DNA of 64,000 nucleotides, from NCBI GenBank assembly GCA_963706515.1, contig CAVPMW010000010.1, positions 54,377 through 118,376 of the forward strand. Reading direction: 5' to 3'. Numbering within the stretch: position 1 is the stretch's first letter; each line of letters starts with the position of its first letter. Shown here one piece after another: positions 7,973 to 29,607 of this stretch. Source of the stretch: an uncultured Chloroflexia bacterium. Its GTDB lineage: Bacteria; Chloroflexota; Anaerolineae; Anaerolineales; UBA4823. Position numbers and translations under genes: made by a program. Under the pieces are notes generated by a model. It ran no database searches. It saw only the letters and a list, made by a program, of their open reading frames with translations, and had not been told where the DNA came from.

Positions 7973-8455
7973 TCATTTTCCATCCGCCAATTGCAGGTAT
8001 ATTTTTGCCCCACGGATCTCTAGGGAAGGGATATCTTCTGTATCGCTTACCCGGATTCCTTGCTCCAGGCAGGTCAGGCGGCAGATGTCGGCAATATCGC
8101 CGTCGCCAATAATCCGAACGCGGTCAAATCCATTAGCTTTCACCTCAACTAAAAGCTCACGGACGTGGTCACGCGTCCTATGATAGAGGTGCATGGAATT
8201 TTCTATATAATTTACTGTAAGACGAGCGCGGAATGCCAGCCCCTCCGGAGTAATGATGTAGCGTAATTTTTTCCGTTGGGCGCGTTTTACCTTGACGTAG
8301 CCTTTGGCAATCATTCGCTTGAGATGCCAGTTGACCGTGCCTACTGCCACACCAAGCTGCGCGGCCATTGTCGCCTGATTAATATCCGGGTCATGCTCGA
8401 TTTGCTCGAGCATGATCAGATCTCGGTCGGATTCTGCTGCGGATTGGTTATCCAT
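7973..8455 (-). CDS. winged-helix (MarR-like, EPS-locus-associated type) transcriptional regulator with extra C-terminal domain
   Basis: 160 aa. The segment ...INQATMAAQLGVAVGTVNWHLKRMIAKGYVKVKRAQRKKLRYIITPEGLAFRARLT... fits the pattern I recall for EPS-associated MarR regulators (LG.S.GK.NY.LK.L..KG.VK......K..Y.LTP.G). About 60 further residues (VRIIGDGDIADI...) follow. Confidence 0.65.
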   Translation of the reverse strand: MDNQSAAESDRDLIMLEQIEHDPDINQATMAAQLGVAVGTVNWHLKRMIAKGYVKVKRAQRKKLRYIITPEGLAFRARLTVNYIENSMHLYHRTRDHVRELLVEVKANGFDRVRIIGDGDIADICRLTCLEQGIRVSDTEDIPSLEIRGAKIYLQLADGK

Positions 8456-8458
8456 AAT

Positions 8459-8482
8459 CTAAAATTCAATAACTGAATTATA
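8459..8482 (-). promoter_or_regulatory. candidate -10 box plus palindromic operator (copy 1, upstream of the regulator gene)
   Basis: The plus strand reads CTAAAATTCA-ATAAC-TGAATTATA, which is TATAATTCA-N5-TGAATTTTAG on the coding strand. The inverted repeat AATTCA/TGAATT lies at 8463..8479, and TATAAT lies 21 nt before the ATG. The same 19 fixed positions recur at 10394..10417 and 27880..27903. Confidence 0.6.
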
Positions 8483-8529
8483 ACATGAGTTAGACTTCGG
8501 CTTTAATCTCGAATGCCGTAAACAAAGAG

Positions 8530-10237
8530 TTAAGGAGCAGCCGGCTCTCCAGCCTGTTTCATGTTGTAGATCCAGGCGTAATCGAAACCATCGATCGTGA
8601 CAGTATATTCAGGGGTTAGCGTCTGGAAATATGCCAGGATTTTCGGACTGGGTAACTGCCGTTGCATCTGAAGGAAATATAGTACGACATAATCTGCCTG
8701 TTGTAATTGTTCGAGCGATATGTTATCGTCCATAAACTTGGATGTGCCGTGGAAAAAATATGAGAAACTACCCTCGTTGTACCAGGAAATCACCTTTAGC
8801 TTTCTCACGTGGGGTTTCGTGTTGAGATATTCAGCAGCTTGCTCCAGTTCTTCTCCCCGCCCAATCATCATAACCTCTTTCGCCCGCTGAATGCCTCCCA
8901 GGAGAGGATTGTAATAATTGTAAAAATATGGATAGGTGCTAAAAACCCCGATGGATTGGACAAGAACCAGACAGGTCAGGATAGCCCAAGTGCCAATCGT
9001 TGCCGTCCTGGCAGAGGCGATCTTGGTCAAACCTCGGCTCACAGCCTGAATGATGGTGTACCATCCAAGGGCTGCAATAAGGATCATCGGTCCTTGAATG
9101 GGGAGCTGGTAACGGTCGAATTTTTTTAAGCTCAAACTGATAAAGATGGTGAATAGTATAGAAAATGCGAGCAAGACGAGTAAATAGCGTTTCTGCTCTT
9201 CGGTAAGCTTTAGTATTTTTGGCAAGAACAAACTCAATATTGCCAGGAAGATTCCAATTGAAACCACTCCGGTGATCCGCCAGATAAAAGATACCGGATA
9301 GAAATACCAGGCTGAATTCGCCGCTATAATAGATTGTTCCATTGAAGAAAGTACTGTGATCGTGACCTTCTACTGCATAGTCGGCAGCCTGGGTGAAGAC
9401 CTGCCTGAGAGTCCAGATAGGATTGACCCACATAGCGGGCCAGAGCAGTACAAAGATCAGGCACGCAACAAACAGCCAAAGCAGAACCGGCTTGACCGAA
9501 CTCCAGATTACTCTTGCATTCCGCTGATCAGGACGGCGCCAAGATTGGATGAGGTTTAGTAATACCAACGCGCCGATAAAAGGGATCAAAAAGAAGGCAG
9601 GCGATTTTGTCAGCCAGCTTAGCCCTGCAACAACAGCGGATACGAGCAGGTCAAGCGTTCGCCGAGATTGGTACATGAATCTCATGAAAGCTAATAAGGA
9701 AAGGAGCATCAGTGCACTGACCAATCCGTCTAGATGTAACAGCCGGGAAAGGGAAATGGTGAAAGGGTCCAAAGCGATCAGGAGGATGCCGAGCAATGCC
9801 GGGATTAAACCGAACAGCTTCAAGCAATACCAGAATGTCAAAACTGACGCGATTACAATCAACAAGACGGTGAAAAATCGCCCGCTTGCCAGGACATCAA
9901 CAGCATCAACCAGATGGTTACGCAGGAAAAAATAGAAATTCGGTAGACCATGGAATTGTTGGTCGACCTTTTTTACAAAATCGGGGTACTGCCATAAAAA
10001 TCCGGCAGTACCTGCCCAGGTAACTAATACGCCAGGGTGCTCTTTTTGGTATGTGTTTTTGAAATCTCTGACCGATAATGCCTGGTAGAAATTCCCAGAC
10101 CGCATCAGCCAAAGGGGTTCATCGACCGTCACGCCGCTATCCAGGCGTAAGGCGCGCGGGAGAAGTAAAGAAGCAATTACTACTCCGGAAATCAATATCG
10201 AAAAAACGATTTTTTTGAGGTTAATTTTTCCAAACAT
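8530..10237 (-). pseudogene. GT-C (PMT_2/ArnT-like) glycosyltransferase, tandem paralog copy 1, frameshifted
   Basis: ORFs 8939..10255 and 8530..9342 together align end to end with the intact 568-aa neighbour. They read FFNGTIYYSGE / SAWYFYPVSFIWRITG versus FFNGVIYPSGDAAWFFYPIAFIWRITG. One extra base lies within GAATTC 9314..9319. Start trimmed to ATG 10237 (MFGKINLKKIV). Confidence 0.75.
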
Positions 10238-27865: not shown

Positions 27866-27879
27866 ACACATCTCCCAAA

Positions 27880-27903
27880 CTAAAATTCAGTTATTGAATT
27901 ATA
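27880..27903 (-). promoter_or_regulatory. candidate -10 box plus palindromic operator (copy 3, upstream of gmd)
   Basis: CTAAAATTCA-GTTAT-TGAATTATA; palindrome at 27884..27900. On the coding strand, TATAAT is followed by the operator and then GGGAG-N6-ATG. Confidence 0.6.
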
Positions 27904-27921
27904 AACGTTACCCGGCTGTGG

Positions 27922-29607
27922 TCAAGTGGACTTATCTATAGGGGAGCCAGACTCCTCAAGTGAATGTTCACGAGGATCACCGTGCGGATTTCCGTGCGGA
28001 TCTCCGCGAGCCCAATCCCATAAAATATACAGGACAGCACTGATGACTCCTAACCCAATCGTTTTAAATAGATCCACCACCGGCCATACGACCGGAGTAT
28101 ACCGGCGCAGGTACCAGGGGACGAACCAGAGCAGGATGATCCCGATTGAAACCAGGGCGCGCCTGAATCCCGCATCCTTGCTGCGACGGTAGGCAACCCA
28201 CGCCCAGGCAGCCAGTGCAATCTGAAGGCTGGCAAAAACTGCCCGGTAGCGCGGGTTGTCATCCTGATCACCCCCGCCACGAAAGGAGGCGATGATGATA
28301 CCTAGCCATATGACAATGGTCAGGACCTGGGCCAGCCGGTCTCGGTCGCGCACGCTCCAGGCGCGCAGGGGAGCATAAACCAACAGGAGAAGCAATATCG
28401 TCCAACCGATTGCGCGCCAGATTGTGATCCAGGGCCAAATCAGCGCTTCACTGCCGGCTATCAGGGCTGCCGGGAGGAACGGTCGCAGCACTCCATAACC
28501 GATCAAGAGCGGGGCATGGAGATATTCCGGTGTGCTATGGAATATTTTTTGCATCCAGCCGGAGGCGTGAGTGTTTATGTACGCCTGCCAGTCCGCAGTT
28601 TTAACGATCCACCAGGTGAACAATTCGAGAGGATTAGAGATGTCAGAGGGGGCAAATTCTTTCCAGGCAACCCAAATAGCGGCAAGGATCAGAAGTGCGA
28701 CCAGAGACAGGATTAGTATGATCTGCCAGCCTGGCAGCCTCCGTTTGGGTGCCGCTTTTCTACGCATGAGCAAGGCTGTCAATACGATCGCGACCAGCAG
28801 CAGACCAGCGAATGGCGGCGAGAGAGGCAGGCTCAACAAGAGTGGAACCAGGACCCAGCCTAAACGAGCCGGGCGATGGTCTTGCTGATATCTGATCAAA
28901 CCATAGAAAGCCATCGCCGTAAATGTAATGGCGAATGCTTCTCGCATCTGCGAGCTGCCGACCAGGACAGCTTCGGGATAAATGGCCAATCCCCAGGCAG
29001 CCATTCTCCCGACCAAATCACCCCACGCCAGGCGGGCAAAAGCCCAGGTGAAGATAATTGCCAAAGCAGAAATTGCGGCAGTCAAGACAACGATGGTTAA
29101 GGGCTCGTGAGTGCTTCCGCCAAAATAGCGATAATAGGCTGCACTCAAAAAAAGCATTCCACCGTACTGGTCAACCTTCCGATATTTCGGATAGGTATGA
29201 AAAAGGGACTTAGACGATTTCGCCAGATCCCAGGCTGCCTGATCGCGTGCATAAGCATCTGACATGATATAGCCTGCGCGCTCTTCTATAGAGCCATGAC
29301 CCAGTACGGGAAGAGAGACATACCAGACAACCCCCATCGCCAGACGAAATAGCGCTGCTCCTATCAGCAGATATGCCAGCCATCTAGGCAGCGCCTCGCC
29401 CAGACTGCGCTGCAATAATAACCAGCCTATCAAGAGGATTGCTGCACCGAGCAGGGTCGCTGCCAGGAATACCCACCAGCTCGACAACCCGGTAAAGTTC
29501 GTGGACACCCAGGACAGCAATATTGAGATCAACAGGATCACTGCTCCGCCCAGGAGCCAGAAGCGCCAATGGATTGCAGGCCGGGTGTTTATGCTCACAG
29601 CATTCAT
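27922..29607 (-). CDS. 561-aa polytopic membrane protein (GT-C-like or polymerase-like; weak call)
   Basis: Trimmed from ORF 27922..29760 to ATG 29607 (MNAVSINT), 10 nt after the upstream stop. More than 12 hydrophobic segments. The loop ...YIMSDAYARDQAAWDL... is a possible acidic GT-C-type motif. C-terminal tail GDPHGNPHGDP. Confidence 0.4.
   Translation of the reverse strand: MNAVSINTRPAIHWRFWLLGGAVILLISILLSWVSTNFTGLSSWWVFLAATLLGAAILLIGWLLLQRSLGEALPRWLAYLLIGAALFRLAMGVVWYVSLPVLGHGSIEERAGYIMSDAYARDQAAWDLAKSSKSLFHTYPKYRKVDQYGGMLFLSAAYYRYFGGSTHEPLTIVVLTAAISALAIIFTWAFARLAWGDLVGRMAAWGLAIYPEAVLVGSSQMREAFAITFTAMAFYGLIRYQQDHRPARLGWVLVPLLLSLPLSPPFAGLLLVAIVLTALLMRRKAAPKRRLPGWQIILILSLVALLILAAIWVAWKEFAPSDISNPLELFTWWIVKTADWQAYINTHASGWMQKIFHSTPEYLHAPLLIGYGVLRPFLPAALIAGSEALIWPWITIWRAIGWTILLLLLVYAPLRAWSVRDRDRLAQVLTIVIWLGIIIASFRGGGDQDDNPRYRAVFASLQIALAAWAWVAYRRSKDAGFRRALVSIGIILLWFVPWYLRRYTPVVWPVVDLFKTIGLGVISAVLYILWDWARGDPHGNPHGDPREHSLEESGSPIDKST

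Follow-up and report, generated by a model that had tools for sequence, protein, structure and literature searches.

The window analysed here is a 64,000-nt stretch of contig CAVPMW010000010.1 (positions 54,377–118,376 of the forward strand) from an uncultured member of the Anaerolineales, and all coordinates given below are window positions. Its subject is a block of minus-strand genes at 7973–29607 encoding one polyprenyl-phosphate glycosyltransferase of family 2 (GT2), two homologues of the UPF0104/MprF flippase domain, and a series of membrane glycosyltransferases of the GT-C type, or like it—seven intact genes and one frameshifted copy. A reading made earlier from the letters alone (the sequence-only reading) had proposed the block as a candidate undescribed glycosylation system. 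On the evidence described here, the block makes up the variable core of a ~34-kb glycan island (about 755–34551) that is syntenic across Anaerolineae. The genes of the block, listed by their open reading frames (ORFs), are as follows.

7973..8455, minus strand: MarR-type winged-helix regulator (HTH_24, 5e-11), a landmark of the island
8530..10255, minus strand: frameshifted tandem copy of the 568-aa GT-C gene, in two ORFs (8939–10255 and 8530–9342)
10466..12172, minus strand: 568-aa GT-C (PMT_2/PMT, Pfam scores above cut-offs)
12231..13724, minus strand: GT-C of ~497 aa (PMT_2); the longest ORF starts at 13916 (561 aa), the realistic start being 13724
13759..15861, minus strand: 700-aa paralogue of the 672-aa GT-C (33% identity)
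15852..17870, minus strand: 672-aa protein, assigned to a new GT-C family from an AlphaFold2 model and Foldseek
17836..18822, minus strand: UPF0104/MprF-flippase-domain homologue of 328 aa (PF03706, TIGR00374), of the type linked to GT4, kinase-like, and 672-family genes
18838..19884, minus strand: P-loop kinase-like protein of 348 aa, phosphoenolpyruvate carboxykinase (PEPCK)/HprK fold superfamily (Walker-A motif, AlphaFold2 model)
19881..21041, minus strand: glycosyltransferase of family 4 (GT4, GT-B fold; Glyco_transf_4, Glycos_transf_1)
21049..22020, minus strand: polyprenyl-phosphate GT2 of the ArnC/GtrB type (full-length match to ArnC/GtrB structures)
22034..23923, minus strand: 629-aa GT-C (PMT_2, 2.7e-12)
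23993..24973, minus strand: UPF0104/MprF-flippase-domain homologue of 326 aa (PF03706, TIGR00374), of the GT2-linked type
24991..26859, minus strand: 622-aa GT-C (PMT_2-like), paralogue of the 629-aa protein
26897..27871, minus strand: Gmd, GDP-mannose 4,6-dehydratase (TIGR01472, above the equivalog cut-off)
27922..29541, minus strand: polytopic protein of 539 aa, probably a GT-C, PMT_2-like but divergent; its longest ORF extends to 29760, and the earlier reading had started it at 29607 (561 aa)

An ORF check located all of the genes on the minus strand where the sequence-only reading had placed them, and its labels agreed in almost every case with searches of Pfam, NCBIfam, and PDB sequences. 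The paralogous pairs are likewise real, with BLASTP identities of 45% (622/629), 33% (672/700), and 30% (UPF0104 326/328). From the Wzx gene of the upstream flank through the 568-aa gene, the gaps between genes measure −35 to +76 nt on one strand, which suggests co-transcription, and the layout of the block appears compatible with one transcript. The ORF list contains no independent plus-strand genes at 7973–29607, and Rfam and tRNA scans of the block found nothing. A consensus scan for promoters and terminators returned fewer promoter-like sites than did shuffled sequences, and returned terminator-like sites inside T-rich membrane-protein coding sequence. The plus-strand AT skew is strongly positive (0.13–0.17) across 10–32 kb, a bias expected when T-rich genes for membrane proteins occupy the minus strand.

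Over its entire length, the GT2 aligns with the solved structures of ArnC (2.7e-65), GtrB sll0501 (1.4e-40), and dolichol-phosphate mannose synthase (DPMS; 1e-16), and possesses a DAD motif at 97–99 and two C-terminal transmembrane (TM) helices. This full-length match of sequence to structure identifies it as a genuine ArnC/GtrB-type polyprenyl-phosphate glycosyltransferase, as had been proposed. The NCBIfam models NF007986 (1e-72) and PgfS (3e-49) match it under their equivalog cut-offs. The pathway for 4-amino-4-deoxy-L-arabinose (L-Ara4N, Arn), considered on account of the ArnC-like GT2 and a nucleotide-sugar dehydrogenase (UGDH) in the island, was rejected: the island is without ArnA, ArnB, and ArnD-type aminotransferase, formyltransferase, and deformylase, and the GT2 scores 245 bits against an ArnC equivalog cut-off of 529 bits. 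A second GT2 (247 aa, 57392–58135, plus strand) lies 35 kb from that of the cluster; its best PDB match is the Pyrococcus DPMS (8e-20), and it weakly matches models for dolichyl-phosphate hexose transferase and PpgS. It is possibly an additional polyprenyl-phosphate sugar synthase, so that the cluster GT2 need not be the sole lipid-sugar synthase of the cell.

The GT-C-like proteins fall into several groups. The 568-aa protein (~10 TM helices) matches PMT_2 (35.3 bits) and PMT (30.4 bits), both above cut-offs; the 561/497-aa protein encoded at 12231, whose homologues in the related locus L004 have 504–512 residues, matches PMT_2 above the gathering score (8e-9, 36.3 bits); and the 629-aa protein (~11 TM helices) matches PMT_2 at 2.7e-12 (47.6 bits). 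The 622-aa protein, which shares 45% identity with the 629-aa protein from end to end, scores 23.4 bits, just under the cut-off of 26.1. Profile comparison with hhalign relates the 629-aa protein to the family of the 561/497-aa protein with 96% probability. The 27922 ORF, called as 539 aa in public data, scores 16.6 bits with PMT_2, under the threshold, and has no Pfam match above threshold; 20 of the 31 members of its family match PMT_2 at E <= 0.01 (best 1.4e-6), a homologue is named "glycosyltransferase family 39 protein" by NCBI, and D95, R99, and D100 are invariant after an early TM helix. The 539-aa protein is thus a probable GT-C as judged from its family. A gene of the 539 type adjoins the Wzx–GT4 pair in L001, L002, L037, L049, and L066.

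All of the polytopic ORFs are therefore GT-C-like or plausibly so, as first supposed, and none matches a transporter family in Pfam or NCBIfam. An invariant acidic residue after the first core TM helix is found in each GT-C family. The acidic first-loop motifs named in the sequence-only reading were found at FDPDEG after TM1 in the 12231 ORF, at ILDEGAY at residues 42 (622-aa protein) and 48 (629-aa protein), and at IDEPLW at residue 38 of the 568-aa protein; the frameshifted copy, which had been credited with the same IDEPLW, reads VDEPLW. Sequence searches against PDB chains with the 629-aa, UPF0104, and kinase-like proteins and with the 672 and 539 profiles gave nothing useful, fold comparison alone being informative.

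The 672-aa and 700-aa proteins share 33% identity over 540 residues (BLASTP). The 672-aa protein comprises ~13 TM helices followed by a C-terminal alpha/beta domain, an STT3/AftA-like architecture, and has no Pfam, NCBIfam, or PDB sequence match, either as a single sequence or as a profile against PDB chains. An AlphaFold2 model computed from 37 sequences (family alignment A1, which includes the 700-aa protein) has a predicted local distance difference test score (pLDDT) of 91 and a predicted TM-score (pTM) of 0.91. In a Foldseek search of the PDB with this model, the sole full-length matches at probability >=0.99 were Stt3 (E 4e-5; query-normalised TM-score, TMq, 0.44), STT3A, AftA, PglB, and ArnT, whereas transporters remained at the noise level (TMq ~0.1), and the membrane part matched no other fold in the PDB at probability >0.3. 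TM-scores to STT3, PglB, and AglB are ~0.3–0.44, with AftA and ArnT scoring much like STT3, and the C-terminal domain weakly resembles the AglB globular domain.

The conserved core of this family starts near residue 135, and its alignment contains two invariant motifs, W177-S-E179-x-x-R182 (WSEGNR in the 672-aa and WSEASR in the 700-aa protein) and K443-IGGG...LHN.D. E179 is located at the start of helix 179–190, after TM 144–165 (core TM1), and would face the outside according to TM counting; in the model, the motif appears to occupy the site of the GT-C catalytic acid, in the first juxtamembrane helix after core TM1. The WWDYG motif of STT3, PglB, and AglB, sought as WWD[YWF]G, occurs in 0/37 aligned members. 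By hhalign, the 672 family matches the other GT-C families of the window with probability <10%, and neither the 672 nor the 539 family gave a significant match to the PMT_2-type families of the window. Homologues of the 672-aa protein number in the hundreds, all unnamed and without Pfam domains, and come from assemblies of Anaerolineales and other Chloroflexota; a profile search of 1.84 billion cluster representatives returned 1177 members at E <= 1e-3 and 765 at E <= 1e-30, a sequence distribution consistent with a compact and well-separated family. Because a confident model shows the GT-C fold and no existing sequence family includes these proteins, it is concluded that the 672-aa and 700-aa proteins represent a new, structurally predicted GT-C family with an architecture like that of oligosaccharyltransferases. 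Their GT-C nature had been only a guess, and the AlphaFold and Foldseek check, run for the 672-aa protein, substantiated it. Assignment of the family to Wzy-type polymerases or O-antigen ligases, considered in view of the nearby Wzx, was rejected, since the fold matches are the GT-C_A enzymes STT3, AftA, and ArnT and no Wzy_C or O-antigen-ligase Pfam match was found; such an activity itself is still conceivable.

The two UPF0104 proteins match PF03706 (8.5e-36 for the 328-aa and 1.4e-35 for the 326-aa protein) and TIGR00374 (66.2 and 64.8 bits, respectively, against a cut-off of 43.2). Both consist of the MprF flippase-like domain (LPG_synthase_TM) alone: the bifunc_MprF model scores 25–29 bits against a cut-off of 600, and the C-terminal aminoacyl-phosphatidylglycerol synthase domain of MprF is absent from both. 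No GtrA or SMR match was found in the block with Pfam or NCBIfam. The end of the 328-aa gene and the beginning of the 672-aa gene share 35 nt, and the GT4 gene at 19881 (Glyco_transf_4, 7e-32; Glycos_transf_1, 1e-29) has a 4-nt overlap with the next gene.

The kinase-like protein exhibits an invariant Walker-A motif, GxGGAGKT, together with invariant His and Asp residues across its homologues. It has no match in a Pfam copy that lacks PF27840, the entry with which the homologues P0242–P0360 are pre-annotated; one of its homologues, P0342 (471 aa), is fused to GT4 C-terminal domains. In a Foldseek search with its AlphaFold2 model (pLDDT 93.5), the top 50 matches are all PEP carboxykinases (TMq 0.46–0.59), with no HprK/P among them. 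The PEP-carboxykinase fold superfamily also includes HprK/P. Thus, the Walker-A motif and superfamily implied by the term "HprK-like" in the sequence-only reading hold, but membership of the HprK family does not: HprK_rel_A scores 22 bits against a cut-off of 200, and with the PEP-carboxykinase fold matches this justifies only assignment to the PEPCK/HprK-type P-loop superfamily.

Gmd is identified by TIGR01472 (430 bits against a cut-off of 415) and by Pfam GDP_Man_Dehyd (5e-130), and recurs beside the GT2 module in L004, L017, L022, L024, and L039. The Fcl-like protein encoded at 6716–7750, outside the block, scores 281 bits with NF047922 against a cut-off of 500, though Fcl is its best match.

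At the opposite end of the block, the frameshifted tandem copy of the 568-aa GT-C gene that had been described is confirmed by its two ORFs and a single 1-nt insertion. The ORFs at 8939–10255 and 8530–9342 match residues 1–307 and 305–568 of the 568-aa protein with 79% and 76% identity, and at the DNA level the copy and the gene are 79% identical, with the insertion near 9317. This frameshift could be a sequencing error or real: the insertion is outside any homopolymer run, but both halves remain open. The duplicated unit, of ~1.94 kb, spans the 568-aa gene and the intergenic region, extends ~25 codons into marR, and has left a marR 5′ relic between the two GT-C copies (10314–10445, 86% identical to 8379–8510). 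The MarR regulator itself scores 68.5 bits with MarR_EPS (TIGR04176; cut-off 88), and its orthologues, 53–66% identical, are present in most related loci, followed by an Fcl-like gene and Wzm–Wzt.

A pattern scan for the 672 family in 185,579 species genomes yielded at least 576 stretches confirmed as relatives. The best 80 of these, whose ORFs were annotated by similarity to the window proteins, constitute the loci surveyed for linkage (designated L001 and so on); all are from Chloroflexota, mostly labelled Anaerolineae/Anaerolineales, and include the cultured Leptolinea tardivitalis. As the loci were collected via the 672 family, presence frequencies are biased, whereas the permutation test of adjacency is unaffected. 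The sub-modules GT2–GT4, GT2–UPF0104, and UPF0104–672-family recur across the 80 loci. In 33/44 cases, one of the next two same-strand genes after a UPF0104 gene belongs to the 672 family, compared with 7.0 +/- 2.3 in permutations (maximum 16 in 2000). The gene directly after the GT2 orthologue is a GT4 gene in 15 loci and a 326-type UPF0104 gene in 7, while the 328-type UPF0104 gene comes after GT4, and in L011, L044, and the window the kinase-like gene separates the two. The complete order of GT4, kinase-like gene, UPF0104, and 672-family gene is conserved in L011 and L044.

The sequence-only reading had supposed that one synthase feeds all of the GT-C enzymes through two flippases. The linkage does not fit this simple scheme, since one UPF0104 type travels with GT2 and the other with GT4 and the kinase-like gene, and UPF0104 pairs with the 672 family. 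The linkage of one UPF0104 protein to GT2 and of its divergent paralogue to GT4 and the kinase-like protein points to at least two lipid-linked substrates, and we think that two lipid-linked species may be exported, one a monosaccharide donor, the other a primer or oligosaccharide made by GT4. Conservation is highest for the GT2, at 64–73% identity across Anaerolineae loci as against 35–50% for the GT-Cs, and the 22-kb loci hold from one to six GT-C-like or large polytopic genes; a conserved GT2 with GT-Cs of variable number and identity is a pattern that fits a conserved donor with variable acceptors or linkages. With seven intact GT-C genes and one broken copy, the window stands at the upper end of this range, although it is not the only such case: L004 closely resembles it in composition, with Gmd, UPF0104, GT2, GT4, and a member of the 672 family followed by a polytopic gene of 879 aa, two genes of the 561 type, and three of the 568 type.

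The block is embedded in a conserved frame, the flanks of which are as follows.

29618..34551, minus strand: upstream flank, with a GT4 (390 aa), a Wzx-type MOP flippase (30807–32234), an SDR epimerase/dehydratase, and the nucleotide-sugar dehydrogenase UGDH (Pfam/NCBIfam)
755..7750, minus strand: downstream flank, with the Fcl-like GDP-fucose synthase, Wzm, Wzt with Wzt_C, a Capsule_synth-like protein, a methyltransferase, and PseB (Pfam/NCBIfam)

The order of the upstream flank is the same in L001, L002, and L049, and the domains ABC2_membrane, ABC_tran, and Wzt_C are present in the downstream flank. PseB, an inverting UDP-GlcNAc 4,6-dehydratase (755–1762, minus strand), scores 486 bits with TIGR03589 against an equivalog cut-off of 408, and a pseudaminic-acid-type pathway probably continues beyond the left end of the window. 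In related genomes, the outer frame runs from UvrD, TsaE/TsaB, RimI, and UDG to UGDH, epimerase, Wzx, and GT4, then through the variable core to MarR, Fcl-like, Wzm, and Wzt; the part from Wzx/GT4/UGDH to MarR/Fcl-like/Wzm/Wzt is kept in L001, L002, L011, L017, and many other loci, the core content of which differs greatly. Hence the block is not self-contained, but forms the variable middle of a larger island with Wzx, a second GT4, UGDH, epimerases, Gmd and Fcl-like proteins, Wzm/Wzt, and PseB. The G+C content is 0.47–0.50 at 8–20 kb and 0.55–0.57 in the conserved flanks. Together, the variable core, fixed frame, low G+C content, and tandem duplication are the signature of a hypervariable surface-glycan locus. 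Other islands carry asparagine-synthase-like, sulfotransferase, and methyltransferase genes and methyltransferase–GT2 fusion genes.

Several observations concern the content of related islands more generally. In ~20 of them (L017:15106–16593, L034:13711–15138, etc.), the methyltransferase–GT2 fusion lies just upstream of marR on the opposite strand and is preceded by a dark polytopic gene of ~665 aa; in the window that pair is absent, and its place is taken by the 497-aa and 568-aa GT-C genes. Related islands also contain four or more additional clusters of large polytopic proteins (550–920 aa, 7–17 predicted TM helices), the largest with 35 members, for example at L012:12337–14334, L008:16008–18059, L063:3941–6481, L055:17931–19994, and L042:17900–19789. 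Most of the scanned representatives have no Pfam match, the L056 cluster is clearly PMT/PMT_2, and some others are weakly PMT_2-like. The hhalign comparison of the 672 and 539 families with four dark polytopic clusters of related loci was not significant.

Taken together, these data favour the reading, at a probability of roughly 0.6, that the block is the variable core of an Anaerolineae surface-glycan island encoding an extracytoplasmic, lipid-donor-dependent glycosylation line. In this line, the GT2 would load a monosaccharide onto polyprenyl phosphate at the cytoplasmic face; the sugar may be a GDP-6-deoxyhexose derivative, a donor weakly suggested by the recurrent Gmd neighbour and the Fcl-like gene. 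The GT4 and the PEPCK/HprK-fold kinase-like protein would make or modify the second lipid-linked species, a glycolipid primer or else a polyprenyl-linked glycan that has been elongated, and each UPF0104 protein would move one of the two lipids to the outer leaflet. Outside the membrane, the seven GT-C-fold enzymes could then draw on the flipped donors for the priming, extension, branching, or decoration of a polysaccharide, the backbone or acceptor of which probably arrives by way of the flanking Wzm/Wzt or Wzx routes. These enzymes would represent four sequence-distinct groups—568/497, 622/629, 539, and the new 672/700 group—of which the first two are related through PMT_2, and the 672-family enzymes may be the direct clients of the flippases. 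Directly supported are the fold and family assignments, paralogy, tight spacing, and conserved linkage; the catalytic and flipping steps are inferred, GT2 charging and external GT-C transfer from the established biochemistry of ArnC/GtrB/DPMS enzymes and GT-C transferases, and the translocation role of UPF0104 from homology to the MprF flippase domain and from published predictions (PMC5898192).

Several points weigh against this reading. A GT2 orthologue is found within 10 kb of the 672-family gene in just 21/56 related loci and a UPF0104 gene in just 29/56, so the parts do not form an obligate unit. The 539-aa family is only weakly PMT_2-like. No initiating phosphoglycosyltransferase of the WecA/WbaP type was found among the scanned window ORFs of >=150 aa, and the tie to the Wzm/Wzt or Wzx routes is consequently positional only. 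Moreover, to our knowledge, flippase activity of UPF0104 proteins on polyprenyl-linked sugars has never been demonstrated.

A bolder reading concerns the conserved UPF0104 and 672-family pair, which may act as a new, Anaerolineae-specific "flip-and-transfer" device: a lipid-linked glycan built by the GT4, and possibly phosphorylated, would pass from an MprF-type flippase to a WWDYG-less STT3-like enzyme for en bloc transfer to a protein, a sheath polymer, or peptidoglycan. We consider this proposal unlikely; if true, it would define a new class of bacterial oligosaccharyl- or glycopolymer transferase and the first defined role of UPF0104 in polyprenyl-linked glycan export.

The glycosylation line could alternatively act on proteins, the GT2-made polyprenyl-phosphate sugar being used by PMT-like GT-Cs for O- or N-glycosylation of secreted, S-layer, or sheath proteins, with the STT3-like 672 family as an oligosaccharyltransferase. 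Models for such a pathway are the actinobacterial Pmt, the streptococcal PgfS/PgfM1/PgfM2, and the GtrB-dependent glycosylation of Ser/Thr-rich disordered regions; a precedent has been described (PMC12041528). The Pfam matches are to the protein mannosyltransferase families PMT and PMT_2, and the GT2 resembles PgfS (3e-49), but PMT_2 is broad and also includes ArnT-like lipid and glycan transferases. Structurally, the 672 family comes closest to Stt3, STT3A, and PglB, with a C-terminal domain that is weakly AglB-like; however, the TM-scores to STT3 are just ~0.44, AftA and ArnT score similarly, and the WWDYG motif is missing from all 37 aligned members. The genomic context is of the polysaccharide type (Wzm/Wzt with Wzt_C, Wzx, and nucleotide-sugar enzymes), and no candidate gene for an acceptor protein is present in the island. 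Protein glycosylation is accordingly held to be rather improbable.

A product anchored in the membrane, in the manner of phosphatidylinositol mannosides (PIM), lipomannan (LM), and lipoarabinomannan (LAM) or of corynebacterial LM-B, would assign the GT4 and one UPF0104 protein to the making and flipping of the anchor and the GT2 and the other UPF0104 protein to the donor, with the GT-C series elongating and branching the glycan outside. This scheme would account for the linkage of GT4 and UPF0104 genes, often with the kinase-like gene between them, and for two flippase paralogues that, at 30% identity, suggest two substrates; GpgSDF and HexSDF are known GT4 and UPF0104 systems that make, and probably flip, glycolipids (PMC12713373). 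The composition of one GT2, one GT4, and many GT-Cs also mirrors Ppm1, PimA/PimB′, and PimE/MptA/MptB/MptC. Nevertheless, Pfam scans of the island revealed no acyltransferases and no inositol- or diacylglycerol-related genes, and the flanking Wzm/Wzt and Wzx are instead indicative of a polymer linked to polyprenyl diphosphate. A lipoglycan is thus given little credence.

Least probable, in our estimation, is that there is no single system at all, the genes being exchangeable decoration modules accreted in a hypervariable, serotype-like island through the dynamics of a recombination hot spot, with each GT-C an alternative or redundant Gtr*-like transferase and some decaying. The extreme variability of content between related loci inside a fixed frame, the lower G+C content of the 8–20 kb region (0.47–0.50, as against 0.55–0.57 in the flanks), the tandem duplication with its frameshifted copy and marR 5′ relic, and the asparagine-synthase-like, sulfotransferase, and methyltransferase genes carried instead by other islands are in line with accretion, but gene spacing is tight or overlapping throughout, the sub-modules recur across loci, and L004 has almost the same seven-GT-C arrangement. 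Some PMT_2-like proteins might also be associated with flipping, as Agl23 (TIGR03663, PMT_2-like) has been reported to be a lipid-linked sugar flippase (PMC11182771), and the 568-aa protein weakly matches the Agl23 model (1e-4). Module accretion is compatible with, and not exclusive of, the surface-glycan line favoured here.

With respect to known systems, the block is most readily compared with the three-component systems (GtrA/GtrB/Gtr*, CsbB/GtcA/YfhO, GacI/GacK/GacL, ArnC/ArnEF/ArnT, and the Citrobacter pentofuranose system), with which it has in common a GT2 of the ArnC/GtrB type that bears TM helices at its C-terminus, a flippase, and a GT-C transferase. Both frequently adjoin a glycan pathway of the ABC-transporter or Wzx kind and decorate its product, and the logic of decorating ABC-exported glycans extends to streptococcal rhamnan decoration and mycobacterial galactan arabinosylation (PMC11127046, PMC8035078). 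Unlike those systems, with GtrA/SMR or MATE/Wzx flippases and a 1:1:1 composition, the block has UPF0104/MprF-domain candidates—the Wzx at 30807–32234 belonging to the conserved flank—in a ratio of one GT2 to two flippases to seven GT-Cs plus one pseudogene; moreover, a GT4 and a kinase-like protein are embedded in it, and one of its GT-C families is new. As judged by sequence and predicted fold, the block therefore agrees with the three-component systems in its GT2 and, by fold or family, in its GT-Cs, but not in flippase family or 1:1:1 composition.

A module of an AglD-like GT2, UPF0104 (arCOG00899), and a PMT/STT3-like protein (arCOG00563) was predicted for archaea by Makarova, Galperin and Koonin in 2015, AglD itself being a GT2–UPF0104 fusion (PMC5898192). 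The same three linked protein classes, and the same inference that UPF0104 flips a lipid-linked sugar for an external GT-C, are found in the block. The archaeal module, however, is dolichol-based, usually with one copy of each component, and serves S-layer N-glycosylation, whereas the block is bacterial, has multiplied GT-Cs, and lies inside a polysaccharide island; flipping is a prediction in both. UPF0104 has also been reported as a fusion partner of GT-A domains and, in Chloroflexi, of GT-B domains (10.1101/2022.03.11.483950, a 2022 preprint), and operons of GT4 and UPF0104 for glycolipids are partly characterised. Among the latter, GpgSDF of P. aeruginosa and HexSDF of C. difficile likewise combine in one operon a GT4, a modifying enzyme, and a putative UPF0104 flippase (PMC12713373), but the middle enzyme is a deacetylase rather than a P-loop kinase-like protein, the products are phospholipid or glycolipid head groups, and there is no GT-C partner.

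The provision of many external GT-Cs by one donor is known from mycobacteria and from the ALG enzymes of the endoplasmic reticulum. The arabinogalactan and LM/LAM pathways of mycobacteria and corynebacteria (Ppm1 or decaprenyl-phosphate arabinose, DPA; Wzm/Wzt; AftA–D, EmbA–C, PimE, and MptA–C) share with the block a lipid-sugar donor, a paralogous series of external GT-Cs, a GT4 primer, and ABC export of the backbone; the structural matches of the 672 family include AftA, and the Wzm/Wzt of the window resemble galactan exporters. By contrast, the mycobacterial genes are dispersed rather than gathered in one block, the donors are decaprenyl-P-Araf and decaprenyl-P-Man, the flippases are unidentified or GtrA-like (Rv3789), and the enzymes are related to those of the block by fold only, not by sequence. 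With STT3, PglB, and AglB, the 672-aa and 700-aa proteins share a multi-TM GT-C core followed by a C-terminal soluble domain, but neither the WWDYG motif (0/37 members) nor any sequence-level relationship.

Searches of the literature outside subscription journals turned up no description of this Anaerolineae locus type, of a characterised locus of the same composition, or of the 672 family, in agreement with the sequence-only reading, which could name no characterised bacterial locus with this architecture. The term "undescribed system" is too strong for the GT2, UPF0104, and GT-C module, in view of the archaeal prediction (PMC5898192) and the reported UPF0104 fusions (10.1101/2022.03.11.483950), but is fair for its multiplexed bacterial version. 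We rate the block as a multiplexed variant of extracytoplasmic glycosylation that uses UPF0104 flippase homologues; the logic of the system is not new, and the 672 family is.

The envelopes of Chloroflexota are biochemically almost uncharacterised, above all those of the filamentous Anaerolineae, which abound in sludge and sediments, and the locus offers an entry point in several respects. The putative new GT-C family has ~1,200 representatives at 50% identity, no Pfam model, and an oligosaccharyltransferase-like architecture. The linkage reported here is the clearest bacterial genomic evidence so far for UPF0104/MprF-domain proteins partnering GT-C enzymes, a partnership that would give a function to a very large family of "predicted flippases" and might suggest candidates for the unidentified lipid-sugar and lipoglycan flippases of Actinobacteria. 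As a one-locus form of the one-donor, many-transferases logic, the block would be easier to dissect or transplant. In addition, hypervariable glycan genes set in a constant chromosomal frame probably help to determine how phages or predators recognise these organisms.

Elsewhere in the window, two further features were noted on the plus strand. The GAF-GAF-HisKA ORF at 45465–46835 overlaps, in another frame, a HATPase_c ORF at 46639–47286, an arrangement resembling a sensor histidine kinase split by a frameshift. The ORF at 53794–54894 encodes a member of baeRF family 10 (archaeo-eukaryotic release factor-like; E 2e-40) and is located near tRNA-Pro (55744–55820) and a NERD-domain gene (56540–57367).

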